From the sequence record NC_047754.1: a stretch of DNA of 64,000 nucleotides. One strand, 5' to 3'. The notes beneath the pieces were generated by a model. It saw only the letters and a program-made list of their open reading frames with translations. It had not been told where the DNA came from and searched no databases. Positions within the stretch are counted from its first letter, which is position 1. The number at the start of each line of letters is the position of its first letter. The translations under genes and the position numbers were made by a program. Positions 4,520 to 31,788 of this stretch are shown here, in pieces. The DNA comes from Escherichia phage phiAPCEc03.

Positions 4520-4561
4520 AGAATAAAGAGCTGAGCCAATTTCTAACATCGTGGAGATCTA

Positions 4562-4930
4562 ATGAAAGCATATCAAAATCTTAAATCTGGCGTAATTAAC
4601 CTTGTTCATGAAAATCAGATTATTCAGCTATACTCCGACAACGGCGAACTTAAGCAGAAAGTTCTAGTTGAAGATCTAGAAGGTATCACACCACAATTCG
4701 ATCCCGAAGCCTTCCGTGAGGTCAAAGTGGAAGTCGCCCCTCAAATCGAAGGTGGTCAACACCTAAACGTCAATGTGTTAAGCCGTGATCAGCTTTTGGA
4801 TGCGCAGAAACATCCTGAAAAATACCCTCAGTTGACCATCCGTGTCTCTGGCTACGCTGTTCGATTTAATGCACTGACTCGTGAACAACAGAACGACGTT
4901 ATTAGTCGTACATTTACTCAGGCGATGTAA
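4562..4930 (+). CDS. hypothetical protein
   Basis: 122-aa ORF with GGAGA RBS. Confidence 0.55.
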
Positions 4931-6443: not shown

Positions 6444-6752
6444 ATGGAAAAGAACGTGAAAAGACTAAACATCAATAGCACGGTGCAGATTCCAGCAACT
6501 AAGGATGTTTTAACATTCCTACGAAGTGAAAACGCTCAGTTTTGGCATGATCATGTTGTAAAGAACGGTAGTATTCCAGATGTAGTTGCCTTTGCCAAAA
6601 AACGTATCGAAGAATATAAAGATCCAGAGATTAAAGATGGGATGATCACTATGCAATTGTGGGTAGCCATGAATACGTTTGGACCTACTATGAGTCTAGG
6701 GGTTACTCCACTATTTACTAATATTCTAATTAATGAAAAGGATCTAAAATGA
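6444..6752 (+). CDS. hypothetical protein
   Basis: ORF MEKNVKRL with GGAGAAG RBS. Confidence 0.5.
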   Translation: MEKNVKRLNINSTVQIPATKDVLTFLRSENAQFWHDHVVKNGSIPDVVAFAKKRIEEYKDPEIKDGMITMQLWVAMNTFGPTMSLGVTPLFTNILINEKDLK

Positions 6753-7033
6753 TTATCTCTCCCTTTGCTCTTTGGTTCGTCATTGGATCTATAGTAGCTA
6801 TTTACAGCTTGGTTGATGATCTGTATATTTCTAAGAATAAAGATGTAATATTATACGTTATACATAAAACTCGACCGTTAGATCTGCCTCCTCTTGATGA
6901 TAAAACATTACTCAGATGTGCTAGATCTATGATATTTATTGTGGATATTCTTCTAGGCCCAACATCTGTGTTTTTCTTTTATAGAAAGACTCGTAATATG
7001 AAAAAATTTAAAGCTGAAATGCAGAATACCTAA
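6749..7033 (+). CDS. membrane protein
   Basis: 94-aa ORF with hydrophobic segments; ATGA overlap with the upstream gene. Confidence 0.5.
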   Translation: MIISPFALWFVIGSIVAIYSLVDDLYISKNKDVILYVIHKTRPLDLPPLDDKTLLRCARSMIFIVDILLGPTSVFFFYRKTRNMKKFKAEMQNT

Positions 7034-7142
7034 AGAACTCGCGTAGGACCGAGTTGCGTCACCTGCAACTGTTACGGATAAGGGAGTCGTGCCCCTTAGT
7101 GCGGTAAGTGGTGAGGTGGCTCTAGCCCTAACTGGAGATAAT

Positions 7143-7487
7143 ATGACTATATTACTAATTCTTGTTACAACTTGGTTTTTAATCGGTGCTGTATATGCGA
7201 TAGCTATTATTAGACATTTGGACGAATACTCTGCTGAATGGTTTGTTAAGTATCTACGTATTGATGATCAAGAACATGAGTTTAAAGATGAAAGACAGAA
7301 AAAAGCAGTAAATAATATGACAGCCAAAGAATGCTTGTTCTACATGCGTATTGTAGGGTTCTTTGGACTATTAGTTGCTGGCCCAATTGGTTCTACCATT
7401 GCTCCATATAAAGAAACAGTTGCTGACATCAAATTGTGGAGAAATGCAGGGGTACTACGCAAAGCTAGAGAAACTAGTATTACATAA
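7143..7487 (+). CDS. membrane protein
   Basis: ORF MTILLILVTTWFLIGAVYAIAII with GGAGA RBS. Confidence 0.5.
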   Translation: MTILLILVTTWFLIGAVYAIAIIRHLDEYSAEWFVKYLRIDDQEHEFKDERQKKAVNNMTAKECLFYMRIVGFFGLLVAGPIGSTIAPYKETVADIKLWRNAGVLRKARETSIT

Positions 7488-7532
7488 GATTGACACTAAG
7501 TCAACTTACTAGCAAAAGCAAATAATGACAAA

Positions 7533-7568
7533 GCCCAGCCTGCACTTTTGCGACTGGGCTATTTTTAT
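7533..7568 (+). terminator. rho-independent terminator
   Basis: GC-rich hairpin GCCCAG...CTGGGC followed by a T-tract. Confidence 0.6.
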
Positions 7569-7581
7569 AATAAAATTTTAG

Positions 7582-7634
7582 TTGCTTAGATGCCCAAACT
7601 TTTATATAATATGTTTATAGATTGAGGCAAGAGG
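7582..7634 (+). promoter_or_regulatory. T5-type early sigma70 promoter
   Basis: -35 TTGCTT, 17-bp spacer, -10 TATAAT, downstream GATTGAGGCAAGAGG. Confidence 0.6.
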
Positions 7635-7641
7635 ATTAAAT

Positions 7642-8322
7642 ATGAGAATCATTTCTAAATTCGCCGATGTGTATGATTTGCAGAACAGTTTGTTCGACCC
7701 TGATCGTGTTTGGGAGCGTAAAACTGAAGAGCTAACAATAAAGGCTCCAGATGATGGCAACTACATGATTATGCAAGAACGTATAATTGCTCGTGTTGGT
7801 GAAAAGAACGGCTACTTTAAAATTCTACCGTTTTTCCTAGCAGGAGAGATTTACTGGATGTACCATATTGATGTATTGGATACTCAAGTAAAAACTTTCA
7901 ACCTAGACAAAGCATTAGAAGTTCTGAAAGAGAATGGATGGTCAACGGGGTTTTCTCTGCTAGATATAAATAGGGGGAAGCCAAAAGAATCTATCCTATC
8001 CTGGAAAGAGGAAGTTACCTCTAAAGCTGAAGAAGCCTTAGCTGAGTTAAGAGTACCCTTAGCGGTTCTAGACTCAGTAGTTCCAAATGATAAAGATAGT
8101 AATAAGTATTTCAAGGCTATAACTAACCCACGCCTACATCTATCAGGTATTCCGTGGCAGGAAGTTGAAAGCAACTTATACCGATTACACCAGAGGGTTG
8201 AGCAGTATATCTGGGGGGTGCTTGGAACTGGAGAACCAGATATTATTACCACTTCTGATAAAGACCGCCTAGCAGCACATGGATTTGATACGGTTACATC
8301 ATTTAGGAATATGAAAAGATGA
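7642..8322 (+). CDS. hypothetical protein
   Basis: 226-aa ORF downstream of the promoter. Confidence 0.6.
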   Translation: MRIISKFADVYDLQNSLFDPDRVWERKTEELTIKAPDDGNYMIMQERIIARVGEKNGYFKILPFFLAGEIYWMYHIDVLDTQVKTFNLDKALEVLKENGWSTGFSLLDINRGKPKESILSWKEEVTSKAEEALAELRVPLAVLDSVVPNDKDSNKYFKAITNPRLHLSGIPWQEVESNLYRLHQRVEQYIWGVLGTGEPDIITTSDKDRLAAHGFDTVTSFRNMKR

Positions 8323-8762
8323 TAAAAAACTTTATTAGTTCTCTATGGCACGGTAAGTGGTATATCCTGGGAGCAGGTCTAGCGATAGGCATCTGGTTCG
8401 GTGCTTATCACTTAGTAGATAAAGTGGAGACTTTAGCAGGAGATCTTGCGGTAGCTACTAAAAAGATTTCTTCTCTAGAGACTTCCCTTAATAAGGTGAA
8501 AGCTGAAAGTGAACTTCGTGAGACTAGAATGAATCAGTATTTCACAATGAATAATATTTCGCAAGCAGATCTAGACAAAAAGATTAAGCAGTTAGATAAA
8601 GCTCTTAGTCGCCAAGATATTATAGCTGCAAAACCTGGATTGGTAACATTAATTGCTAAAAAGCAGAGTAAAGAGTTCGAGGAAAGATTAGCGTGTTTAA
8701 CTGGAAGCTTGGAATACTGCTCGCAGCCGCAATCACAATCACAGGCTGCGCACAAGAAATAA
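8319..8762 (+). CDS. membrane-anchored coiled-coil protein
   Basis: N-terminal transmembrane segment then heptad-like region. Confidence 0.5.
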   Translation: MIKNFISSLWHGKWYILGAGLAIGIWFGAYHLVDKVETLAGDLAVATKKISSLETSLNKVKAESELRETRMNQYFTMNNISQADLDKKIKQLDKALSRQDIIAAKPGLVTLIAKKQSKEFEERLACLTGSLEYCSQPQSQSQAAHKK

Positions 8763-9046
8763 AGCCAGAACCTACACATGAACTACCAACAGCTCATGTG
8801 GACTGGCCTAAAGGACTTCAACCTTGTAGCTTTGACTTTAAGTTTGAAAAGAAATTAGCTACAAATGGAGAAGATGGCGTAGTAGTTGTTGTACCATATA
8901 AAGATTGGAATGCAAAAGCAAAATGTGAGGAAGCAGTTTACTCTTACATTTCACGACTGACTGGTATGGTTTGCTTCTACCGCCAAGATTTACAAGAAAA
9001 ACGTTGCTTAGTTTACTATCCACCAATTAACAATAGGAAAGATTAA
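8693..9046 (+). CDS. lipoprotein
   Basis: Signal peptide with lipobox ITGC. Confidence 0.5.
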   Translation: MFNWKLGILLAAAITITGCAQEIKPEPTHELPTAHVDWPKGLQPCSFDFKFEKKLATNGEDGVVVVVPYKDWNAKAKCEEAVYSYISRLTGMVCFYRQDLQEKRCLVYYPPINNRKD

Positions 9047-9798
9047 TGTCAGTATTAGTAGGTTTACATGGTGAAGCTGGTTCGGGAAAAGATACCGTTG
9101 CAAAATTAATTATCGATTGGTGTAATGACACGTATCCAACGTGTTTATCACGTCGTTATAGTTTTGCTAAGCCCGTTTATGAACTTGCATCCGTAATCCT
9201 CGGTGTAACTCCAGAGTTTCTAGGAGAGCGCAGAGGAAAAGAGATTGACCAATGGTTTACGGTCACACAATCTCAATTGGAGCGAGCCAGAGATGTGTGG
9301 TTTAAGTACGGTATCGATAAGTTTGAAGACTTCTCGTACGTTTGGCCTATTTTTGAGGAAAAATATCTTAATCCTCAACAACTTATCTCAGAGAATAAAG
9401 AAGACGGACTTTATAGTTTATTTATTTCTCCGAGAAAAATGTTACAGCTCGTAGGGACAGAGCTAGGAAGGCAGCTGGTGCATGAACGCATTTGGCTCAT
9501 AATTCTGGAGCAATCCATCGCTAAAGACGACCCAGATGTCGCCGTAATAACAGATGTTAGATTCCCCAATGAAGGAGAGTTACTCAGAGAAACAAACCAT
9601 TTAGATATGGATTCTTTGATAGTAAATGTAGTACCCGCTGAGCAGAAGTTCACTATTAAATCAGATCATCCATCTGAAAGTGGTATTCCTGCAAAATATA
9701 TTACTCACGAATTAGTTAATAAATTCGATGGTATCAATAACCTTAAACTAGAAGTTTATAACTTCTGTGACTTAGAGCTAGAACCACTAGTTGGATAA
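9046..9798 (+). CDS. dnk: deoxynucleoside monophosphate kinase
   Basis: P-loop GEAGSGKDT as in T4-type dNMP kinases; 250 aa matches the size I recall for T5 dNMP kinase. Confidence 0.65.
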   Translation: MSVLVGLHGEAGSGKDTVAKLIIDWCNDTYPTCLSRRYSFAKPVYELASVILGVTPEFLGERRGKEIDQWFTVTQSQLERARDVWFKYGIDKFEDFSYVWPIFEEKYLNPQQLISENKEDGLYSLFISPRKMLQLVGTELGRQLVHERIWLIILEQSIAKDDPDVAVITDVRFPNEGELLRETNHLDMDSLIVNVVPAEQKFTIKSDHPSESGIPAKYITHELVNKFDGINNLKLEVYNFCDLELEPLVG

Positions 9799-21845: not shown

Positions 21846-22382
21846 TATTCTGCAAGTCTCGGTGCACAATACCTGTACCGAGACAATAATACAAACTCTC
21901 GTTGACAGATAGCTAAATGTATGTTATCATAACTCTATGAGTTAATAGAATTAACCATTTAGAGTTGCCACACAGAAGGTGTGGTGGTTCAGTAATTTAA
22001 AATTACTAACTTGTAGCGGAGGATACGGAGCGACAGGACAAGTTAATAAGTAATTTAATATAAATTGCTAGAAACATCACGAGACCTTCTGGCGGGGGCA
22101 AAGCTCTATATGAGAACCCTGGGGGATCTTATATTTAAAATAAAAGTAAAACTTTTGACCACATAATTTACATTCAAGATGATACACCTGTTGCCGCTCA
22201 TCTGCTAGGATGGCACAACACTTTCTTCTAGACTCCTAAGTTTTTATGAAAACTCTAGTCAACTCAGGCGGTTTTCATTGTTCCTAGAAACTCTAGCAAT
22301 AGGCGGTTAATACAGGGCGGTTATAGGGAGGGCGGTTATTTCTAGGAGACATTTTTTGAAAACACATTTCCAGAAATTACTA

Positions 22383-22981
22383 TCGGATTTGCACATTGTG
22401 TTTCTAGAAATTTATGGTCGGATTTGCACAAACGCCTAAGTTTTCAGGAACTCTTACTCTCCTGAAAATGGCAGCATTATTTCGGGCCGAAGGCCCGTGA
22501 TTGCCTGAGTTTTTAGAGTCACAATAATTTTCACTTGTCAAGCTATTTTGCCCCATTTAGCTAATAAAATTTTACTTTATCTGCACTTATCTCAAATTAA
22601 CCCAAATCTTCTCAACTCTTCCCCAAAATCCCCGCAAATCAGGTGCTCCGCACCAAACATGCACCTCTCCCACAGTTCCCCCAAGTTTCTCTCGCTCTCT
22701 CAACTTCTCCCCAAACTCATACAATCACACACCCTCCAATCGAAGTCACAAAAATCTTGTCGGATTCGCACAAATAAACCCCTGTCGGATTTGCACATAT
22801 TCTAGCTAATTCCACAGGATTGATGCGCAGCATCGGATTGCTGTAGTTTTTAGGAAAATTCATTGTCGGATTTGCACACTATAAAAATTTTTCGGGTCGG
22901 ATTTGCACACTACTAAAAATTGTCGGATTCGCACATACACGCCCACGCGTAACACCCGTGGAGCAATGTCGGATTTGCACA
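22383..22981 (+). repeat. iteron-like array: 8 direct copies of 13-bp TCGGATTYGCACA
   Basis: Copies start at 22383, 22428, 22759, 22785, 22866, 22897, 22923 and 22969, all in the same orientation within a noncoding region. Confidence 0.85.
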
Positions 22982-23033
22982 AAAGCGCAGGGCAATTGCC
23001 CTGCCCGCCTGAATGCAAATACAAATGAGAATC

Positions 23034-23165
23034 ATTCGCATTTAAAAAGCGGAATGAGAATGATAATGATTCGCATTTAAAAAGTGAAATGAAAATTATT
23101 CAGGAAGTGAAACGATTCTCATTTAAAAAGTGGAATGCAAATGATAGTGATTCGCATTTAAGAAC
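23034..23165 (+). repeat. 4 direct copies of ATTCGCATTTAAAAAG-containing unit
   Basis: Units at about 23034, 23069, 23115 and 23150, period about 35-45 bp. Confidence 0.75.
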
Positions 23166-23191
23166 GGAAGTGAGAAACACTGTTATTTAAG

Positions 23192-23273
23192 TTATCCACA
23201 GACTTATTAACCGCATAATTTGACTTGACAGAATCCTAGCCATTTTGAGGCGTTATTAACAGACTTATCCACA
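23192..23273 (+). promoter_or_regulatory. DnaA-box-like 9-mers (TTATCCACA), two copies
   Basis: Exact TTATCCACA at 23192-23200 and 23265-23273. Confidence 0.55.
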
Positions 23274-23442
23274 GCTTATCCTACTGTATAAATATACAGT
23301 ATTCCTACGCAGTGAATAATTCTAATATAGTCCTAAAACGTCCTAGATCGCATTCTAACGCGTTTAATTTTGGTGGGGATACTAAAACAAGGGGTTATCC
23401 GGTTGCAGGCGTGAAAAACGGGGATCTGCTCCCCGCTTGTTG

Positions 23443-23637
23443 TCAGTCCGGTAATTGATGCGTGATCTTCTCCTCCTCCCCGTAGGAATCGACCAAATGT
23501 TGATAGTAACCATCGGCATCATAAATAACGCTATCATACTCGCCACGCTCGACCGCTTGCCGGTTTTCCGGCGTATCGGGCACGTAAAAAACATCAACCA
23601 TTGTACTGGTTTTAGTCACAATAATTTTATTGCTCAT
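23443..23637 (-). CDS. hypothetical small protein (pre-early-like block)
   Basis: 64-aa ORF with AGGGG RBS-like sequence. Confidence 0.5.
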   Translation of the reverse strand: MSNKIIVTKTSTMVDVFYVPDTPENRQAVERGEYDSVIYDADGYYQHLVDSYGEEEKITHQLPD

Positions 23638-23662
23638 AATAACCCCTAGTAAATATATAATT

Positions 23663-24007
23663 TCATTGTGCTACCTTTCGAAAAGCTGTTTCAATACTTT
23701 CCGCAGTTGATTGAATATACGCGCCTTTCATGATCAGGCGCTCAGTGCATATCTTACGGAAAATATTAATAAAATCATCTTCATTTTCTGCAATTAATGC
23801 TTCACCCATAACCTGAACGTCGCAAGATGCAAAGGTCAAAAATTGAAACGCTAGTTCACGGGCAACGACCGCATTGATTTTATAATGCGCCTTGCCCTCA
23901 TAAATATTAATAACGCCCTTGTAAGCTGGGGAAAGCTGGTTTAAATAGTTTGCTAGTAATGCCGGACGGCAATTAGCAACAAAGCGGTTGCCCTCATAAA
24001 TAACCAT
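23663..24007 (-). CDS. hypothetical protein
   Basis: ORF with GGGAGG RBS before internal ATG at 24007 (MVIYEGNRF); the listed ORF extends to 24022. Confidence 0.5.
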   Translation of the reverse strand: MVIYEGNRFVANCRPALLANYLNQLSPAYKGVINIYEGKAHYKINAVVARELAFQFLTFASCDVQVMGEALIAENEDDFINIFRKICTERLIMKGAYIQSTAESIETAFRKVAQ

Positions 24008-24130
24008 TTTATAACCTCCCAATCAGGTAACCAGATAAAAGCATAAAAATCCCCAGTAAAAGGGGATCATTCTTAAATAAGGTGGCGGTAAAACCGCCAA
24101 CCATTGCAAGGAGAATAACAATAGCGCTTT

Positions 24131-24343
24131 TCATAGTACCCCACGAAACGCAGCGTAAAAGGTGGCAAAGTGTTTAACTGTTTCAGCGATCACGTTGCCG
24201 CGCTTGTCAAATTTTTTCTCGGTAACACGAAAGGCATTTTTGTTACGTGCTACATATTCGATTTTACAATCTTCCCGCTCGAACGTGTTAACATCCACCA
24301 GCTTAAAGCCTTTCGAACGTGCAAGAGAAACGTTGCGGATCAT
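24131..24343 (-). CDS. hypothetical basic protein
   Basis: 70-aa ORF. Confidence 0.5.
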   Translation of the reverse strand: MIRNVSLARSKGFKLVDVNTFEREDCKIEYVARNKNAFRVTEKKFDKRGNVIAETVKHFATFYAAFRGVL

Positions 24344-24345
24344 TT

Positions 24346-24501
24346 TTATTCTCCTTTACTAGTCATGCAGCCCAGCAGATAAGAAAATACAGCGATACCC
24401 GCGCCAATAATAACCGCGTGAACGCCGAAAGCTATGGCAAAAAGTGATAAAATAGCGCCCAAGATACCTGCCAGAATAGCTCGAAAAATAACCATTTTCA
24501 T
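24346..24501 (-). CDS. small hydrophobic membrane peptide (51 aa)
   Basis: ORF MKMVIFRAILAGILGAILSLFAIAFGVHAVIIGAGIAVF, GGAG RBS; below the ORF-track cutoff. Confidence 0.4.
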   Translation of the reverse strand: MKMVIFRAILAGILGAILSLFAIAFGVHAVIIGAGIAVFSYLLGCMTSKGE

Positions 24502-24541
24502 TCTCCTAGTTAGCGGGGCGAAAATAACGCCCCGTTATTAC

Positions 24542-24772
24542 TTACATTAAAACAATTTTAGCGGCTTGTTTTTTGGTGCAATGTTCCGCCTTCAGGGTAT
24601 CCAGCAAAAAGCCAGCCGTTTGCTGGTCAATCTTATCAGCGTTATACAATTCTTGGATGGTGTTATAAGTTTTAGCAATGCCATATTCTTGCACCATTTC
24701 GTGAATAATAACGCGGTTAGATACCCAGCCTTGAGCGGTGAACAGATGACTAGCAGAAGAATAAGCAACCAT
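24542..24772 (-). CDS. hypothetical protein
   Basis: GGAGG RBS before internal ATG (MVAYSSASH); the listed ORF extends to 24829. Confidence 0.5.
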   Translation of the reverse strand: MVAYSSASHLFTAQGWVSNRVIIHEMVQEYGIAKTYNTIQELYNADKIDQQTAGFLLDTLKAEHCTKKQAAKIVLM

Positions 24773-24889
24773 TTTAAGCCTCCAATTTTTGGGAAAATTT
24801 TCAACCGTCCTCGAACGGTGTAAGGGCATTATAACAAAAAAGGCCGCCGATTATGGCGACCTTTACAAAACTTTACATTAGATTATTTA

Positions 24890-25123
24890 TTACTCGCTTT
24901 CGGTGCTAGTGGTAAAAGTAGAAATATCAATACCTTTCACCATTTCATCAATCATCTCAGCAATGTTAAAAGATTGCACCATTTCTAACATAGCCGCTTC
25001 CATAGCTGCACCTGCTACCGCTTTCGCCTTTTGGTTACTCGGGGCGTACTGGTCAACCGCTACACTCAGCAGGTTAGCGATCACTACCCGACCAATCGGC
25101 GTATCAATATAGCCTTTAATCAT
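24890..25123 (-). CDS. hypothetical protein
   Basis: 77-aa ORF; start overlaps the upstream stop (ATGA), suggesting coupling. Confidence 0.5.
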   Translation of the reverse strand: MIKGYIDTPIGRVVIANLLSVAVDQYAPSNQKAKAVAGAAMEAAMLEMVQSFNIAEMIDEMVKGIDISTFTTSTESE

Positions 25124-25866
25124 GAAGGGCGCTTTTTAGCCGCTACTTTCGTAATTTGAGTCAGTGCAATTTTACCCGCTTCCAGTTTTGCAGCGTTTAC
25201 AACAGCGGATTTATTAGCGGCAACGATGTTAGCAATCTTGGTCATAGTATTTTTTCCTTTATTTTCAGTAGTTTGAGCGTTAGAATTTACAGCATGTTTT
25301 TCCGTGTTGTCAATAGGCTGATCTTCATCTTTCCAGAAAGAAAAACCAGCACTTTCGATGTCGCCATCATATACATATGGGTATAGCTCCCGTGGTAGCA
25401 AAAAATTGCCATCGTCATCAAAAGCCATTACAGCCGCCAGACGATACCCGTCACCAATTGACCGATTCCAGCCAACTGATAAATAACGCCAAAATGAATC
25501 GAGAAAATTTTCAACGTCATAAAGATCATTGGGGTTGGCCCCATAGTTTTCTATTGAAAAAACTTCTAAGCCCGCCCCAGTATCATAGGCTTTTACTATA
25601 CTACCTTTTACAATTATGAAATCGGTATCCGGCCCCCTGCTAGTAAGCAGGTGATTATCTCGATTATATAAAACAAGCGTTGCCCCTTGCTTATACAGTT
25701 GCAAAAAACTACTCATATCATAGGCATCGAAATCATCAAAAAAATTTTGGTGAATATCTTCGGACTTGTTAACAAAGTGTTTAATGCTGGTTGTTCTGCT
25801 ACCATCCAGCAGGTTACGCAGCGCACCTTTTAAGACGGTTGCGTTATCTGGTTTATATAGCCTCAT
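25120..25866 (-). CDS. hypothetical protein with Ala/Lys-rich C-terminal tail
   Basis: 248-aa ORF, first gene of the minus-strand block. Confidence 0.6.
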   Translation of the reverse strand: MRLYKPDNATVLKGALRNLLDGSRTTSIKHFVNKSEDIHQNFFDDFDAYDMSSFLQLYKQGATLVLYNRDNHLLTSRGPDTDFIIVKGSIVKAYDTGAGLEVFSIENYGANPNDLYDVENFLDSFWRYLSVGWNRSIGDGYRLAAVMAFDDDGNFLLPRELYPYVYDGDIESAGFSFWKDEDQPIDNTEKHAVNSNAQTTENKGKNTMTKIANIVAANKSAVVNAAKLEAGKIALTQITKVAAKKRPS

Positions 25867-26158
25867 TTGTTCGGCCCCCTCGTTAATCGGTGAGTGAATG
25901 ATAAGGGTAATTTTCTAGCATAGGCAAAGATTATTTTACTTTTTTATTTTCCTTGCCTAACGCCTATTTTTATGCTAACCGCGCAGCGGTGTACTAAAGA
26001 GCAAAACACGGCGAAGCCACCAGGCCGTCGCATTGAGGCTTTACTTTAATATTACCTTGTAGCGTTCAGCTCGTTAGAAAGCGTTTTAGGCCGCTTAAAA
26101 TTGATTGCAGTCGTTAACACTACCTTTTTACCCTGTGTATTTATACAGTAGAATAACC

Positions 26159-26540
26159 TGTGGATAAGTCTGTGCAAAAGTCCCTATATCGCCGCCTATC
26201 GTGTCAAATTATTTTGTGCTGTGGATAACGTTGTGGATAACTTAAATGATAGTGGTTCTCACTTAGGCCGATAGTTTCTTATAGTTATTATTTCTTATAA
26301 TTATTATTTCTCATTAATTTATAAGTATATTATATATCATGAAATAGTTAGTTGGCTAATGAGATTTTCCGTGATTAATAGTCTGCTAATAATTTAAGCC
26401 GTTACAATCCACCAGCATGATTATCATCCTAGCAATTATTAGTCTGCTATCTTTCCGATGCATACTAACAGATAAAAGTCAATTAATTTATTTTATAAAA
26501 TAAGTAGTTATCCACTGGAAAATAGAAGTCAAGTGGATAA
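26159..26540 (+). promoter_or_regulatory. DnaA-box-like 9-mer cluster, mostly in reverse orientation
   Basis: TGTGGATAA at 26159-26167, 26220-26228 and 26232-26240; TTATCCACT at 26507-26515 and AGTGGATAA at 26531-26539. Confidence 0.55.
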
Positions 26541-26987
26541 CTAGGAAAATTTCATTTTTGCTTCTGGGGATAAGTTATCAACAAGGCTAGAATGCGCCTA
26601 AAACGCCCTAGAACGCGATGAAGTTTTTAGCCATCTCATCATAAAGGGATAAGCCGTTTATCGCTGTCACGAGCTTTTTAGGTTTTGTCAAGTAGGGCAA
26701 AGTAAATATAAATGAAAAAATTACTTGCCTATTTGCTATGTTTTGTGGTATTCGCGCGCCCGTTTCTTTCAATTTTAGGCCGTCGCCGCACGCCGTCCGG
26801 TGGATCGTGTCTTTACGTTTCTTTACAAAAATAAGGTTGCGCCATTTTCGGGAATCCCCTATTATTTATCTCGTAGGGCGGCAATGACGAACTACACGGC
26901 GGGAAGTTTACCACCACGCTCTTTAAAAATTGGGTACATCTTAAAGCCTATCGGCGGTAAACTTATTCATTATAAGGAATCGACGAT

Positions 26988-27191
26988 ATGAAACAAACGC
27001 TTTTGATCACTGGCAAGCCTATTAAGGCACTAGATATCAAAACAAAAAACTTGTTGACAGTAGCACAAAGATCAGTAAAATATAGATTCACGCAGTACAA
27101 GAAAGGTCGCCAGCAAGGTTTAGAAATGATCTGGCGAAATATTATGATTGACTTGAAAGAAAATCATAAAAAACTGCAAAAAACCGCTTGA
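26988..27191 (+). CDS. hypothetical basic protein
   Basis: 67-aa ORF with AAGGA RBS. Confidence 0.4.
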   Translation: MKQTLLITGKPIKALDIKTKNLLTVAQRSVKYRFTQYKKGRQQGLEMIWRNIMIDLKENHKKLQKTA

Positions 27192-27216
27192 CAACCTAGC
27201 CGATAGGTTTTAAGAT
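27188..27216 (+). promoter_or_regulatory. sigma70-like promoter
   Basis: -35 TTGACA, 17-bp spacer, -10 TAAGAT. Confidence 0.4.
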
Positions 27217-27420
27217 GTACCCAGTTCGATAAGAGCGATAACTTGATAAAATTTGACGGTCGGTGCTTACCATAATGCATCCCGCCCCCCTAACTGGGAT
27301 ATAGCGGCCTACGTGGAGTTCTTTAAATCGATTATACTGGCGAGCGGATTGTTACTTATTACCTGCTACTTTCTAGCAGGTAATGCGGAACAATCCACCA
27401 AATAACTCGGAGTTTATATT

Positions 27421-27672
27421 ATGCAAAACGTTATTACCGCGCCTAAAATTGGTCAATCCGTCTTCATTCCTTTCGTTACTAAAACGGATGAATTAACCGG
27501 AAAGGCTGAACGCATTAAAGGTGCGGCGCTTATGCCGTTCGATACAATCGACGCGGTATATGCTGAAAATGAACGTAGTAACAACGGCAAACCTGTTTTT
27601 AACGTTCGCGTTAAATCCGGCGACGTTGTAAAGGTTGTTCAACGTAACGAAAAATGGGAAGCTGTTCTGTAA
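27421..27672 (+). CDS. hypothetical protein
   Basis: 83-aa ORF with GGAG RBS. Confidence 0.6.
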   Translation: MQNVITAPKIGQSVFIPFVTKTDELTGKAERIKGAALMPFDTIDAVYAENERSNNGKPVFNVRVKSGDVVKVVQRNEKWEAVL

Positions 27673-27770: not shown

Positions 27771-28178
27771 ATGACTAACGTTAAAACCGCAAAATTCGCA
27801 TGGAATGAAGAAAACACTCAGAAAGCTGTTTCCATGTATCAGCAGTTAATTAATGAAAACGGTTTAGATTTCGCAAATAGAGACGGTTTAAAAGAGATTG
27901 CAAAAGCAGTTGGCGCGGCTTCCCCTGTATCCGTTCGCTCAAAATTGACCAGTGCAAAAGCCTATCAAAAAAGCGATAAGCCGCGTAAAGTTGGTGGCGG
28001 TAGCTCTGTGCGTAAAGCTCACTATGTGCGCGTTATCGCTAAACATGCTATTGATTCCGGCATTATCAAAGACGCCGACGATCTGGCAAGTCTGGAAAGT
28101 GCAAAACTTGAAACGCTGGACGCAGTAGCGCAACTGTTAGGCGTTGCCGATGAAGTAAAACAAGCCGCAGGCGAATAA
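27771..28178 (+). CDS. A2: A2-like pre-early protein (tentative)
   Basis: 135-aa ORF next to the A1-like gene; size matches what I recall for T5 A2; assignment rests on size and synteny only. Confidence 0.4.
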   Translation: MTNVKTAKFAWNEENTQKAVSMYQQLINENGLDFANRDGLKEIAKAVGAASPVSVRSKLTSAKAYQKSDKPRKVGGGSSVRKAHYVRVIAKHAIDSGIIKDADDLASLESAKLETLDAVAQLLGVADEVKQAAGE

Positions 28179-28269: not shown

Positions 28270-28467
28270 ATGATTTTCTTTCCTACTGAATCATTAATTC
28301 TAGGCTTGTTTATTATGGCGGCCTCATTATTATTTGCTTATTTTCAAAATGATTTAGATTCATATTATTTTAAACGTAAATCTAAGTTAGCAAAACGTTT
28401 GGGCTTGCTTTGTTTTATCGCTGCCGTTGCTTGTGGTGTTAGTTCTAGCCTAATGCCTTTAAATTAA
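28270..28467 (+). CDS. small membrane protein
   Basis: 65-aa ORF with two hydrophobic segments. Confidence 0.5.
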   Translation: MIFFPTESLILGLFIMAASLLFAYFQNDLDSYYFKRKSKLAKRLGLLCFIAAVACGVSSSLMPLN

Positions 28468-28557: not shown

Positions 28558-30228
28558 ATGATTATTTCCGCAGAAAAACAAACCGTTATCCTGAAAATGG
28601 CCGCTGACTTTAATTTCTATGGTAAACGTCTGCGCGCTACTAAACTGGAAGTCTGCGACGATATATCAAAAGCGGTCTACGATACAACGAAGCATTCAAC
28701 CGCTATCTGCGACTGGCTGGAAGCAAATAAACCAGCTAAACCGAAAGCGGCAAAAGTAGCAAAAGCCATTAAAAACGATGAGCGCCCAGAAGCGGCGGGG
28801 ATTGTTTCTAGTACGGTTGAGCAATGGGAAGTAAAACAGGGTAAACGCTTTATTATTACGTCGATTCAGAATAATACTTTCCCACATAAAAACTTTTTAG
28901 CAAGTCTGGAAAAATTCGCTGAATATATCGGTGCTGATTTGCTTGTTTCTAAGTATATTTATAATAAAAACGGCTTCCAGAATGGAGAAGGTGCAGACGG
29001 TATCAAATACGATCCCGCATTTGATAAATATATTTGCAGCAAAAACGTGTTTTTAAATAACCGCCGTTTTGCTTTCATGGCTGAAATTAATGTTTTGCCT
29101 ACCGCAGACTATCCGCTTTCAGGATTTGCAGAAACTGCAACGGCTTTAAATATTGAAGGGCTGGCAATTGGTCACGCTAAAATTACCGCTGAAAGCGTGC
29201 CAGCTTTAAAAGGTGAAGTAGTGCGCCGTATGTATTCAACCGGAACGGCAACGCTCAAAAACTACATTCAGCAGAAAGCAGGACAAAAAGCCGAGGCGCT
29301 GCATAACTTCGGTGCGCTTATAGTTGAGTTCGACGACGACGGGGAATTTTTTGTTCGCCAGCTTGAAACAATGGACGAAAGCGGGGTGTTTTATGATCTG
29401 AACGTTTGCGCTACTCCTGCCGGATGCTATGAGACATCGGGGCATGTTTTAGGCTTGCAGTATGGCGATATTCACGCCGAAAAATTAGATGAGGAGTGCG
29501 CCGCCGCATCTTGGGGGCATGGTGATACTTATGGGCTAGTAGATATTCTTAAACCAAAATATCAGTTTGTGCATGACGTTCACGATTTTACATCCCGCAA
29601 TCATCATAACCGCGCATCCGGTGTATTCCTAGCTAAACAATACGCCGCCGGACGTGATAAAGTTCTGGATGATCTTATCGATACGGGGCGCGTGCTGGAA
29701 TCAATGGAACGTGATTTTAGTCAAACAATCATTGTTGAATCTAATCACGATTTGGCGCTATCCCGTTGGCTTGATGATCGTAATGCTAACATCAAAGACG
29801 ATCCAGCAAACGCCGAGTTATATCACCGCCTGAATGCTGCAATTTACGCGGCAATCGGTGAACACGACGAAACGTTTAACGTGCTAGATTATGCGTTGCG
29901 CAAGGTTGCAGGTTGTGAATTTAACGCCATTTTCCTGACCACTGATCAATCTTTCAAGATTGCAGGCATTGAATGCGGCGTACACGGTCACAATGGCATT
30001 AACGGCAGTCGTGGCAATCCTAAACAATTTAAAAAATTGGGCAAGTTAAACACGGGGCATACCCATACCGCCAGCATTTATGGCGGCGTATATACCGCTG
30101 GCGTTGCTGGTAGTCTGGATATGGGTTACAACGTTGGCGCGTCAAGCTGGACGCAAACGCATTTAATTACCTATGCAAATGGTCAACGCACTTTGATTGA
30201 CTTTAAAAACGGTAAATTCTTTGCATAA
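28558..30228 (+). CDS. A1: A1-like pre-early protein, metallophosphoesterase-family nuclease
   Basis: 556 aa; calcineurin-like motifs GDIH, SNHD, GVHGHNG and GHTHT in canonical order; size matches T5 A1. Confidence 0.7.
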   Translation: MIISAEKQTVILKMAADFNFYGKRLRATKLEVCDDISKAVYDTTKHSTAICDWLEANKPAKPKAAKVAKAIKNDERPEAAGIVSSTVEQWEVKQGKRFIITSIQNNTFPHKNFLASLEKFAEYIGADLLVSKYIYNKNGFQNGEGADGIKYDPAFDKYICSKNVFLNNRRFAFMAEINVLPTADYPLSGFAETATALNIEGLAIGHAKITAESVPALKGEVVRRMYSTGTATLKNYIQQKAGQKAEALHNFGALIVEFDDDGEFFVRQLETMDESGVFYDLNVCATPAGCYETSGHVLGLQYGDIHAEKLDEECAAASWGHGDTYGLVDILKPKYQFVHDVHDFTSRNHHNRASGVFLAKQYAAGRDKVLDDLIDTGRVLESMERDFSQTIIVESNHDLALSRWLDDRNANIKDDPANAELYHRLNAAIYAAIGEHDETFNVLDYALRKVAGCEFNAIFLTTDQSFKIAGIECGVHGHNGINGSRGNPKQFKKLGKLNTGHTHTASIYGGVYTAGVAGSLDMGYNVGASSWTQTHLITYANGQRTLIDFKNGKFFA

Positions 30229-30580: not shown

Positions 30581-30973
30581 ATGAAAAAGCAAAATATTCC
30601 ATTTGATCGCGCTCAGTCTTCCATTGTTCTGGTTTATTCTAATGGCGAACGTTACCACGTCGAGGCGGGGCACGTTATTGATGATCTATTAGATTTCAAT
30701 GACGCTTTACAGGTTACAACATTCGCATATACGCAGGGCAAACTAACCAGCCATATTAAAGCAAAAGGCGTTTATGTTGATACGGTGAAGCAAGAAACGA
30801 TTATCATCGACGCCGTAAAATCCGGCCTTGCCTTTGCAGTTGTCGCGCCTTGCCCCGCTTGCCTTGATGATCAATTGATTTCTGCAAAAGTATATACTTG
30901 TGCTGGTATTCGTTCCAGCGTATCAGGTGAGGATGTTAGTTTTATTGCCGATGCGTTGGCTTATGGTCTTTAA
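30581..30973 (+). CDS. hypothetical protein
   Basis: 130-aa ORF with GGAG RBS. Confidence 0.6.
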   Translation: MKKQNIPFDRAQSSIVLVYSNGERYHVEAGHVIDDLLDFNDALQVTTFAYTQGKLTSHIKAKGVYVDTVKQETIIIDAVKSGLAFAVVAPCPACLDDQLISAKVYTCAGIRSSVSGEDVSFIADALAYGL

Positions 30974-31053: not shown

Positions 31054-31788
31054 ATGAATCAAGTTAAAACGAATATTACCCGTAATTTCCCGCATATTTC
31101 CCGCGTCATGATTTGGGATCTGGACGGCACTATCATTAATTCTTTCCATCGTGTAGCGCTTTGCTTTGATAGTGAGGGCAATTTAGATTTAAATAAGTAT
31201 AAAAATGAAGCCTGCAAACATCATTTAATAATGCAAGATACTTTATTGCCATTAGTTGAATACATGCGCCAGTGCATGAATGACGCAAATACTTTAAACA
31301 TTATTTGCACCGCTCGACTAATGAGCAAGTCGGACTATTATTATTTGCGCAAACAAGGCTTGCGCGGTCGTGGTAATAGTAATATCCGCGTGTTTTCCCG
31401 TGATACACTGCATAAATATTTTGAGGCTGATAAAGTTAGCGAAATATACCACAGCAAGGACGCAGTATATAAATCTTATTATTTTGAATTATTCAAACAA
31501 CTATACCCAAACGCTGATTTTACAATGATTGACGATCATAAAGGCGTACTATCAGCGGCGGCATCATACGGATTTAAAACGCTGGACGCGCAAGCCGTTA
31601 ACGATATTCTATCAATCGGCGTGACATTGATAGGTGAAACCTTTATTGATGAATCCCTCGATGATGATAATGATTATCAATTCCTAGCTGACCGTTTAAA
31701 ATTATGCTGGGAAGGTATGACCGAGGAAGAACGCGCAGAATATAGTTGCAGCCCGCAACAATATATTGAGAAATTAAAAGTTGCGTAA
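31054..31788 (+). CDS. dmp: HAD-family 5-prime-deoxyribonucleotidase
   Basis: 244 aa with HAD motif I (WDLDGTI) near the N-terminus; size and position match T5 dmp. Confidence 0.6.
   Translation: MNQVKTNITRNFPHISRVMIWDLDGTIINSFHRVALCFDSEGNLDLNKYKNEACKHHLIMQDTLLPLVEYMRQCMNDANTLNIICTARLMSKSDYYYLRKQGLRGRGNSNIRVFSRDTLHKYFEADKVSEIYHSKDAVYKSYYFELFKQLYPNADFTMIDDHKGVLSAAASYGFKTLDAQAVNDILSIGVTLIGETFIDESLDDDNDYQFLADRLKLCWEGMTEEERAEYSCSPQQYIEKLKVA

Follow-up and report, generated by a model that had tools for sequence, protein, structure and literature searches.

The eight minus-strand open reading frames (ORFs) at 23443-25866 of the phiAPCEc03 window (the whole 64,000-nucleotide stretch that was analyzed) very probably constitute the rightward arm of a T5-like pre-early (first-step-transfer) region, orthologous to T5.011-T5.017, arranged in two transcription units and encoding accessory takeover effectors rather than essential functions. 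A first-pass annotation had placed seven or eight genes in exactly this span and likened the region to the pre-early DNA of T5-like phages. The likeness was borne out by synteny with T5, Bf23, and AKFV33 and by repeats downstream of the block, while the eight ORFs proved to represent seven genes, one of which is frameshifted:

24890..25866, minus strand: T5.011 orthologue (DUF7566) with a repaired length of 325 codons; present as a 248-aa ORF (25866-25120) and a 77-aa ORF (25123-24890)
24542..24772, minus strand: T5.012 orthologue, 76 aa; 83% identity to T5.012; dN/dS 0.14
24346..24495, minus strand: T5.013 orthologue, 49-aa hydrophobic two-segment membrane protein; 68% identity to T5.013; dN/dS 0.20
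24131..24343, minus strand: T5.014 orthologue, 70 aa, basic (pI 10); 100% identity to T5.014; dN/dS 0.07
24009..24134, minus strand: 41-aa hydrophobic ORF with two short hydrophobic segments; phrog_19184, E 2e-25; dN/dS 0.25
23663..24007, minus strand: T5.015 orthologue, 114 aa, putative Ung-dependent abasic-site nickase by homology; 94% identity over 114/114 residues, E 7e-78; dN/dS 0.06
23443..23637, minus strand: T5.017 orthologue, 64 aa, acidic (pI 4.4); 94% identity to T5.017; phrog_6973; dN/dS 0.14

Each ORF of the block matched a phage protein family in a profile search (E 1e-25 to 1e-106), and pairwise dN/dS over the block genes was 0.06-0.25, with no internal stops, among 16-29 distinct relatives. 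All seven genes are under purifying selection, and the family homology and dN/dS values together ruled out the possibility that the ORFs are chance or antisense artifacts.

In Bf23, AKFV33, EASG3, and T5, the syntenic stretch at 4-10 kb of the terminal repeat is approximately 90% identical to the block in nucleotide sequence. Flanking landmark genes were located in the window by tblastn, and comparison with T5, Bf23, and AKFV33 placed dmp, 002, A1, 005, A2, 007, hdi, and 009 on the other side of the block, while injection-stop-like repeats in a repeat-rich region lie downstream of it. The block is flanked by the divergent A2-A1-dmp arm and, on the other side, by the putative injection-stop region. 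It is present once in the 64-kb window, and the assembly appears to be circularly permuted with the terminal repeat collapsed. The suggestion that the block is less AT-rich than the adjacent early region holds (41.3% versus 37.1% GC), but the contrast is small: the late region, at 39.2%, and the window as a whole, averaging 38.7%, are close to the block.

The T5 region (NC_005859, left terminal repeat 6495-9157) has the same gene order, strands, promoters, terminators, and flanks. The phiAPCEc03 block differs in having a frameshifted 011, a loop in the 013 protein that is 10 aa shorter, and an additional 41-aa membrane ORF that separates 014 from 015, and in lacking both T5.016 and the upstream hegG (T5.010). 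The closest likeness overall is to the right arms of the tequintaviruses Bf23, AKFV33, VAH1, ESCO40, and HdH2 (approximately 90-94% nucleotide identity), which, like phiAPCEc03, carry the 41-aa ORF along with the short form of 013 and, unlike it, have an intact 011. Several of these phages carry a further 31-aa ORF between 015 and 017, Bf23 has an additional 164-aa gene after 011, and an HNH endonuclease is encoded upstream in VAH1 and HdH2. The block is mostly ordinary: it closely copies a T5 region for which sequence, annotation, deletion, and single-gene expression are already on record.

Two probable transcription units

The block had been described as tightly packed and translationally coupled throughout. 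Tight packing was found for 013, 014, the 41-aa ORF, and 015 (gaps of 2, -4, and 1 nt), but not between 012 and 013 (46 nt), between 015 and 017 (25 nt), or between 011 and 012, where 117 nt contain a terminator and an extended -10 promoter that divide the block into two transcription units. The regulatory features are:

25898..25927, minus strand: sigma-70 promoter of 011, TTGCCT-18-TATCAT, preceded by an A-rich tract (promoter scan); corresponds to 'T5P4' of T5
24839..24864, minus strand: Rho-independent terminator after 011, 10-bp stem AAAGGTCGCC/GGCGGCCTTT followed by a T-run (terminator scan)
24828..24836, minus strand: extended -10 promoter TGTTATAAT of the 012-017 unit (sequence); 'T5P5' of T5
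24515..24533, minus strand: hairpin GGGGCG-TTATTTT-CGCCCC between 012 and 013, with no T-run (read from sequence)
23414..23435, minus strand: terminator after 017, CGGGG-AGCAGAT-CCCCG followed by TTTTT (sequence; hairpin from scan)

The first unit would thus comprise a promoter, 011, and a terminator, and the second the extended -10 promoter, 012, 013, 014, the 41-aa ORF, 015, 017, and a terminator. The 011 promoter is nearly invariant relative to T5 AY587007, Bf23, and VAH1, a pre-early promoter is annotated there in T5, and the promoter upstream of 011 has been characterized experimentally (Annor et al.). The terminator that follows 011 is conserved and annotated as such in T5, Bf23, VAH1, and HdH2, and its T-tract is overlapped by the extended -10 promoter, which is invariant in four phages and is a putative pre-early promoter in the annotations of AY587007 and Bf23. 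The annotation of Bf23 also has a terminator at the same place after 017.

Host sigma-70 RNA polymerase would transcribe the block in the first minutes of infection. Pre-early expression before second-step transfer has been shown in the literature for T5 and for the tequintavirus Bas33, in which pre-early products were detected as transcripts and protein, and by analogy with these two phages the same timing may be expected in phiAPCEc03.

Gene 011: a frameshifted, two-part protein

The 248-aa protein with an Ala/Lys-rich tail, previously taken as a separate product, is the N-terminal part of the 325-aa T5.011 gene, and the next ORF, of 77 aa, is the rest. The two ORFs match consecutive positions of DUF7566 (PF24450), namely 5-258 (E 1e-57) and 260-336 (E 2e-42), and likewise consecutive positions of the PHROG profile, whereas an intact homologue with 97% identity to the repaired protein (P0002) matches DUF7566 positions 5-336. 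In blastp against T5.011, the N-terminal part showed 70% and the C-terminal part 97% identity. Instead of a single uninterrupted frame of approximately 325-340 codons, the gene has a 1-nt deletion that ends the frame after codon 248, while full-length homologues are 324-340 aa and the ORF is continuous in 27 of 27 relatives carrying the gene. Three sites within 011 are of interest:

25133..25137, minus strand: frameshift site, A5 run GCTAAAAAGCG, A6 in relatives (alignment with VAH1, ESCO40, HdH2, and Bf23)
25284..25313, minus strand: promoter-like site TTGACA-18-TAAATT, a hypothetical internal promoter (promoter scan, 10/12 matches), in codons of the predicted disordered linker
25243..25245, minus strand: in-frame ATG (Met208), a hypothetical internal start, with AAGGA 9 nt before it

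Because the 1-nt deletion in the A-run splits one gene, the ATGA overlap of the 248-aa and 77-aa ORFs is a by-product. The A5 allele was absent from all 27 relatives and had no counterpart among the IMG/VR contigs (0 matches for the A5 context, 25 for A6). Either the base was lost through an error in sequencing or assembly, or the phage carries a private mutation that inactivates a toxic gene it can do without.

A biologically meaningful split, through ATGA termination-reinitiation or through a programmed -1 frameshift at AAA_AAG that keeps the level of full-length protein low and so limits a toxic dose, was weighed against this and is very unlikely. A -1 slip on GCT_AAA_AAG would restore the exact ancestral reading (...AAKKAPFMIKGY), and the stop of the 248-aa ORF overlaps an ATG that encodes a conserved Met of full-length 011; the heptamer T_AAA_AAG, however, is not a canonical X_XXY_YYZ site. 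T5 011 is toxic and its wild-type gene unclonable, and the same 77-aa ORF also arises in an independent T5 sequence, AY587007, where one A is missing 45 nt upstream. The simplest account of this difference from AY543070, a sequence of the same phage, is an error in sequencing or an artifact of clone selection, and homopolymer indels are the most common sequencing error. Furthermore, the in-frame version is found in all 27 relatives, in 238 database homologues among the matches listed, and in the 25 IMG/VR contigs, with the A5 allele nowhere else. The frameshift should be checked ahead of any annotation of the genome or use of the phage, as automated pipelines would call two genes.

An AlphaFold2 (AF2) model of 011 (pLDDT 86) predicts two domains joined by a disordered linker: the N-terminal one is an alpha/beta domain that is variable and evolves fast, the C-terminal one a helical module that is strongly conserved. 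Along the gene, codon-wise dN/dS falls from 0.3-0.4 in the middle to 0.02-0.05 in the C-terminal third. The module, approximately 120 aa in length and always C-terminal in the protein, is all that 684 clusters have in common with 011; at least 51 unrelated N-terminal groups are joined to it, and HIRAN is present in 23 of 148. These proteins of other phages, including HIRAN-DUF7566 fusions, share the helical module with 011 but have N-terminal domains unrelated to its own, and on two longer contigs the neighbors of the module gene are small early-type phage ORFs. The module may serve as a shared part for targeting or assembly, with the N-terminal domain of 011 as the variable working part. A two-part protein whose C-terminal module is common to hundreds of phage protein clusters, often with the DNA-end-binding HIRAN, offers a concrete experimental handle.

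Expression of T5 011 is toxic in E. coli (bioRxiv 10.64898/2026.04.02.716235), with nucleoid disorganization published for the T5 protein, and the phiAPCEc03 protein, by extension from T5, would disturb nucleoid organization. The latest T5 study states that 011 'resists functional predictions'. A Foldseek search of the PDB with the confident 011 model gave no informative match (best E 0.09), and a search of BFVD returned uncharacterized phage proteins only. A cryptic HIRAN fold in the N-terminal domain was ruled out (hhalign probability 0.1 against the HIRAN group). Epseptimavirus 011 alleles carry the UniRef name 'DNA N-6-adenine methyltransferase', which was likewise rejected as a propagated misannotation, because those proteins match DUF7566 only.

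The promoter-like site inside 011 is largely conserved over 011 alleles, the Met208 ATG is invariant in 25 of them, and three stand-alone C-module proteins (P0245, P0305, and P0309) start at the position equivalent to Met208. The recoded T5 011, which can be cloned, should no longer contain the promoter-like site.

The small genes and the question of anti-defense

Judged from sequence, the 95-aa ORF of gene 012 is in reality 76 aa: its upstream ATG falls within the -10 hexamer of the conserved promoter, phrog_5145 aligns from residue 20, and a GGAGG ribosome-binding site lies 7 nt upstream of the shorter frame. Gene 013 reads as 51 aa from an upstream ATG at 24501 but is probably 49 aa, and phrog_5607 (E 5e-32) aligns from residue 3. 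The claim of two tiny hydrophobic proteins was confirmed by computed hydrophobicity (49/51 aa and 41 aa). The 013 protein has a GRAVY of 1.7, with residues 1-45 hydrophobic and broken only by G-V-H, and it combines the homology with the two hydrophobic segments in approximately 50-60 aa that define the T5.013 family. T5 013 is toxic in E. coli and damages the envelope, its expression leading to lysis (bioRxiv 10.64898/2026.04.02.716235), and the phiAPCEc03 protein would do the same. The 41-aa ORF, whose start overlaps the 014 stop (ATGA), has no T5 counterpart and is present in 17 of 30 relatives. Together with 012, 014, and 017, it would belong to the conserved proteins among the accessory takeover products; T5.012 was not toxic in T5 studies.

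The statement that no product carries an assignable motif is true of sequence motifs, and the remote homology searches that had been proposed yielded no family beyond DUF7566 and phage families that lack a function when all products were scanned against Pfam, PHROGs, NCBIfam, and PADLOC, with nothing under E 0.09 in PDB sequence searches with 011, 012, 014, 015, and 017. The genes nevertheless have close homologues among the named genes of T5, on which data have been published. Those data give a mixed answer to the refuting condition proposed in the first-pass annotation, a lack of phenotype on deletion and expression. There are expression phenotypes for three genes, while deletion shows the region not to be essential in a laboratory host: T5 with hegG-017 deleted is viable and degrades host DNA normally (bioRxiv 10.64898/2026.04.02.716235).

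The first-pass annotation favored novel anti-defense or host-shutoff factors. That the block is a novel anti-defense or anti-restriction set, in which at least one of 012, 014, the 41-aa ORF, 017, and 011 inhibits a host immune system, for example as the factor behind the insensitivity of T5-like phages to restriction after expression of the pre-early genes, is possible but rather unlikely. The pre-early position would suit such a role, and T5-like phages resist type I, II, and III restriction when the sites lie outside the terminal repeat. The conservation of 012, 014, the 41-aa ORF, and 017, which in the profile scans matched function-less phage families at most, is also compatible with it. 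Both 017 (pI 4.4) and 011 (pI 4.9) are acidic, like DNA-mimic inhibitors, but no Pfam anti-restriction family (ArdA, Ocr, or others) was matched at E up to 1, where searches for known anti-restriction and DNA-mimic families gave only DUF7566 and noise, with no NCBIfam or PDB sequence match; 011 also had no structural match. Several alleles of the fast-evolving 011 N-terminal domain and varying gene content among relatives are usual for arms-race genes. The published activities of 015, 013, and 011, however, damage the host and do not inhibit defense, and the hegG-017 deletion leaves T5 able to grow and to degrade host DNA. The genes may, according to Annor et al., matter in hosts with other defense systems; no published experiment on defense-carrying hosts was found, and the HIDEN-SEQ preprint holds no T5-like data.

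A broader proposal joins this idea to the structure of 011. The C-module would be a widespread phage 'adaptor' that brings exchangeable N-terminal effectors (the 011 N-terminal domain, HIRAN, ExoX-like, and dozens more) to one conserved nucleoid or replisome target, and that is perhaps also made alone from 25313-25284 and Met208, while at least one of 012, 014, the 41-aa ORF, and 017 would be the pre-early restriction-insensitivity factor. Taken whole, this proposal is speculative and improbable.

The putative 015 nickase and a misplaced database label

Most products of the block, as first described, are without a molecular function, but the 114-aa member is the orthologue of the nickase T5.015. 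An ORF of 119 aa can be read from a TTG, but going by sequence the protein is in reality 114 aa. It has seven substitutions relative to T5.015, and its upstream neighbor is the 41-aa ORF rather than 014. Genes 014 and 015 occur together in 26 of 26 genomes. T5.015 is an Ung-dependent AP-site nickase whose toxicity and growth inhibition are abolished by joint K85A/K94A/K111A substitution (Mahata et al., 2021, PMC8201957), and T5 015 was toxic in E. coli in a further study (bioRxiv 10.64898/2026.04.02.716235). All three lysines are present in both T5.015 and the phiAPCEc03 protein, although K111 is substituted in 3 of 17 aligned sequences of the family. From the 94% identity and the three conserved lysines, we infer that the phiAPCEc03 protein would bind host uracil-DNA glycosylase and nick its abasic sites in dUMP-containing host DNA, as shown for T5.015; such nicking would arrest replication and division. 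An AF2 model of the orthologue, built from a 17-sequence alignment in which all sequences were at least 75% identical, reached a pLDDT of 61.7, which is too low to support conclusions on structure or mechanism.

Databases point to a different gene. The label 'endonuclease nicking abasic sites...' stands on phrog_4227 and on the RefSeq records NC_005859 (T5.014) and NC_017969, and the numbering of AY587007 calls the 70-aa gene 'ORF015', so that the 70-aa T5.014 orthologue, rather than the 114-aa protein, might be taken as the Ung-dependent abasic-site endonuclease. This is almost certainly wrong. The paper uses T5.0xx locus tags, and substitutions at K85, K94, and K111 are impossible in a protein of only 70 residues, while the 114-aa T5.015 has lysine at all three positions. 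In addition, T5.014 was reported to be non-toxic, and UniRef puts the name 'DNA-(apurinic or apyrimidinic site)...' on the 114-aa family, in which PF26847 was found on 17 of 17 database clusters. The nickase label on the 70-aa gene in RefSeq and PHROGs is an off-by-one error from the shifted ORF numbering of AY587007. This misplaced label on the T5.014 family is spreading to many phage genomes, while PHROGs lists the true 114-aa nickase family (phrog_4379) as 'unknown function'.

The block and its T5 counterparts

The block at window positions 23443-25866 is closely orthologous to a region already described in the literature, T5.011-T5.017; what the analysis usefully adds is a frameshift flag, a correction to the label of the nickase and a modular view of one gene, 011. 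Eight minus-strand ORFs (248, 77, 95, 51, 70, 41, 119 and 64 aa) tile the block in an ORF list of 22000-27500, each matching a phage protein family (E 1e-25 to 1e-106). Among 16-29 distinct orthologues drawn from 30 related loci, pairwise dN/dS was 0.06-0.25 and internal stops were absent for every block gene, including the hydrophobic 41-aa and 49/51-aa ORFs. These are not chance ORFs. The first-pass annotation correctly described them, where they lie and the hydrophobic peptides among them, but its gene count was wrong. The 95-, 51- and 119-aa lengths were rejected as artefacts of mechanical ORF definition: PHROG profiles start at residues 20, 3 and 6, respectively, the internal ATGs are preceded by good ribosome-binding sites, and in the 95-aa ORF the ATG is part of a conserved promoter, falling within its -10 hexamer.

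Correspondence of block ORFs with T5 genes (blastp)
248-aa and 77-aa ORFs: T5.011, 70% and 97% identity; one gene, split
76-aa ORF (internal ATG at 24772): T5.012, 83% identity
49/51-aa ORF: T5.013, 68% identity; window loop 10 aa shorter
70-aa ORF: T5.014, 100% identity
41-aa ORF: no T5 counterpart; phrog_19184, found in 17/30 relatives
114-aa ORF (ATG at 24007): T5.015, 94% identity
64-aa ORF: T5.017, 94% identity

The description of the block as uncharacterised is outdated, as published T5 data exist for 011, 013 and 015. When T5.002-T5.017 were cloned, 008, 011 and 015 were toxic (Mahata et al., PMC8201957), and 015 was shown to bind Ung and to nick the abasic sites that Ung generates, leading to replication and division arrest (PMC8201957). 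Toxicity in E. coli was also reported for dmp, A1, hdi, hegG, 011, 013 and 015, with expression causing uneven nucleoid staining (011), lysis (013) or elongated cells with trapped nucleoids (015); wild-type 011, which "resists functional predictions", was unclonable while a synonymously recoded copy was clonable, and T5 lacking hegG-017, plus left-arm deletions, was viable with small plaques (Annor et al., bioRxiv 10.64898/2026.04.02.716235). In Tequintavirus Bas33, pre-early transcripts and ten pre-early proteins were detected by transcriptomics and proteomics, and CRISPRi-ART identified A1 and A2 as the fitness-critical pre-early genes. BF23 and its relatives withstand restriction. The first-pass interpretation is partly supported: its pre-early placement is right, and an anti-defence role of the block is hypothetical.

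No paper was found that gives a function to 012 (76 aa, neutral), 014 (70 aa, pI 10, dN/dS 0.07, identical to that of T5) or 017 (64 aa, pI 4.4), and these proteins and the 41-aa membrane ORF were matchless in Pfam, NCBIfam, PADLOC and PDB sequences. Whichever served as query, 014 and 015 were recovered in the same 26 IMG/VR genomes, a co-occurrence that would fit a functional link but could equally stem from shared ancestry in a narrow clade. The poor structure prediction for 015 (pLDDT 61.7) is explained by its very narrow family, in which 17 clusters share at least 75% identity. In one relative, IMGVR_UViG_2974620381 (~4545-4760), tblastn recovered the T5.014 homologue as two fragments (residues 1-29 and 27-70), suggesting that this record contains a frameshift.

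Genomic setting and transcription layout

Megablast of 22000-27500 matched 477 phage records, T5-like with few exceptions. The best of them (~90% identity) align at 4-10 kb of the Bf23, AKFV33, EASG3 and HASG4 records, which begin at the left terminal repeat. In the Bf23, AKFV33 and T5 annotations, the counterparts of the block are T5.011-T5.017, in the terminal repeat or first-step-transfer DNA. By tblastn with T5 proteins, the other pre-early arm lies on the plus strand; T5.003, hegG and T5.016 had no counterpart in the pre-early region.

Pre-early genes of the other arm (tblastn with T5 proteins)
31054-31785, plus strand: dmp
30584-30961, plus strand: 002
28558-30225, plus strand: A1
28270-28464, plus strand: 005
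27771-28175, plus strand: A2
27421-27666, plus strand: 007
26988-27182, plus strand: hdi
26884-26988, plus strand: 009

Downstream of 017 lies a repeat-rich non-coding tract (22374-23280) that corresponds to the T5 injection stop signal; within it, GTCGGATTYGCACA occurs at least seven times, a ~62-nt unit (ATTCGCATTTAAAAAG...) occurs three times, and DnaA-box-like TTATCCACA motifs occur in pairs. Because of this counterpart and the synteny with the T5 arms, the pre-early-like placement made in the first-pass annotation is correct. The block was also said to be less AT-rich than the early region, which is true, but the contrast is minor (41.3% GC versus 37.1% in the adjacent early region, with 39.2% in the late region and 38.7% in the window). 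The GC skew switches sign across 21-26 kb, as expected for minus-strand genes.

The pre-early region is single-copy in the window, flanked by early and late genes. Because late/structural genes (~31.8-33.6 kb) directly follow dmp, the end of a T5-type left terminus, and tRNA and early genes stand before the pre-early region, the assembly appears to be circularly permuted, its terminal repeat being collapsed into a single copy. A non-coding stretch of ~1 kb (25867-26883), without hegG (T5.010), separates the 011 promoter from the T5.009 homologue; it includes DnaA-box-like TGTGGATAA repeats (26158-26240) plus a palindromic pair (26505-26543).

Transcription signals and intergenic gaps of the block
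25927-25898, minus strand: conserved promoter upstream of 011, TTGCCT-18-TATCAT
24864-24839, minus strand: terminator after 011, 10-bp stem and T-run (terminator scan)
23435-23414, minus strand: hairpin and TTTTT after 017
011 / 012: 117 nt
012 / 013: 46 nt, with a hairpin without T-run
013 / 014: 2 nt
014 / 41-aa ORF: -4 nt (ATGA overlap)
41-aa ORF / 015: 1 nt
015 / 017: 25 nt

An extended -10 element, TGTTATAAT, follows directly on the T-tract of the 011 terminator. Terminator and -10 element are invariant across T5, Bf23 and VAH1, and in T5 AY587007 the former is annotated as such and the latter as promoter T5P5. In T5, the promoter that precedes 011 is reported to have been characterised experimentally (Annor et al., bioRxiv 10.64898/2026.04.02.716235). 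From the terminator and promoter after 011 and the intergenic gaps, the block is predicted to form two transcription units, with tight packing, and hence plausible translational coupling, only in 013-014-41-aa ORF-015; the earlier view that the whole block is coupled was wrong. Between its promoter and ribosome-binding site, 012 has a 5' leader that contains a small hairpin (ACCGT-TCGAGG-ACGGT, 24782-24800), and at this site Bf23 has a different sequence in which pairing is also possible (CACC-AAAACG-GTGG).

The split of 011 and the nickase label

The 248-aa and 77-aa ORFs belong to a single broken gene. The former aligns with positions 5-258 of Pfam DUF7566 and phrog_4263 and the latter with positions 260-336, and 011 measures 977 nt in the window versus 978 nt in-frame in the closest relatives. 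In the alignment, the window reads GCTAAAAAGCG at 25133-25137 where VAH1, ESCO40, HdH2 and Bf23 read GCTAAAAAAGCG. The gene is split in none of 27 relatives carrying it, and the 238 database homologues listed are all 324-340 aa except two shorter entries. Given intact 011 elsewhere and the one-nucleotide loss in the window, the Ala/Lys-rich tail ascribed to the 248-aa protein is therefore an internal helix of the full protein plus three out-of-frame residues, and the ATGA overlap of the two ORFs, taken as coupling, is a by-product of the frameshift.

The five-A run of the window may be a sequencing error or a true mutation; in IMG/VR, the six-A context had 25 matches and the five-A context none. 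Programmed frameshifting at AAA_AAG could also be considered, as a -1 slip there would give back the ancestral reading, although it is unlikely that full-length 011 is produced in this way. Within 011, two T5 genome records show a one-A difference in GGGCAAAATT: A3 in AY587007.1 (6417-7426), A4 in NC_005859 (6495-7505). AY587007, with A3, annotates the gene as ORF011 (245 aa) and ORF012 (77 aa); its deletion is a different, independent split, 45 nt upstream of the site in the window.

The 70-aa family (24131-24343) carries the label [quoted passage not shown] in phrog_4227 (PHROGs) and in RefSeq NC_005859 T5.014, NC_017969 orf013 and others. The inactive nickase mutant is K85A, K94A, K111A (PMC8201957), positions impossible in 70 aa, and the T5.014 family was rejected as the nickase. 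Lysines occupy positions 85, 94 and 111 in T5.015 (114 aa) and in the 114-aa protein of the window, whose family is represented separately in Pfam (PF26847) and named "DNA-(apurinic or apyrimidinic site)..." by UniRef. Because the 011 split shifts the AY587007 numbering, in which the 70-aa gene becomes ORF015 and the 114-aa gene ORF016, it was concluded that the label is an off-by-one error. The predicted nickase orthologue in the window is 23663-24007.

Modular architecture of 011

At E <= 1e-3, an exhaustive search with a full-length 011 homologue returned 684 clusters defined at 50% identity, but only 18 at E <= 1e-30. Most matches cover query residues ~195-320 alone, always C-terminal, in proteins of 84-544 aa, and all 148 representatives examined matched DUF7566 via its C-terminal part (C-module). 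An N-terminal HIRAN domain was present in 23 of the 148 and an ExoX-like C-terminal domain in one; the N-terminal regions fell into at least 51 groups mutually unrelated by BLASTP, and ~19 proteins consist of the module alone. T5-like alleles are 54-59% identical overall, with the C-terminal ~115 residues nearly identical, and dN/dS is 0.3-0.4 at codons ~90-210 versus 0.02-0.05 at codons ~240-330. We infer a division of labour in which the shared C-module serves targeting or assembly and the variable N-domains do the work. In view of the HIRAN partners and of the nucleoid phenotype seen with T5 011, DNA or the replisome is a candidate target.

Putative internal signals in 011
25313-25284, minus strand: promoter-like site, TTGACA-18-TAAATT (promoter scan)
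25245-25243, minus strand: ATG (Met208) of AAGGA-N9-ATG, 3' of that site, at the start of the conserved C-module

The promoter-like site falls in codons of the disordered linker of 011, both elements are conserved across 011 alleles, and the residue equivalent to Met208 is the start of stand-alone module proteins. The C-module might be expressed alone from this site which, if true, would explain why wild-type T5 011 was unclonable and the recoded copy clonable.

Many UniRef/GenBank entries for Epseptimavirus 011 alleles and JLBYU40 are named "DNA N-6-adenine methyltransferase"; their sole match is DUF7566, and the name is probably an annotation error passed on from record to record. In Bf23, an additional 164-aa gene (7283-7777) lies between 011 and the terminator, and in two short metagenomic contigs a stand-alone DUF7566 C-module (121 aa) is followed by a 164-aa ORF.
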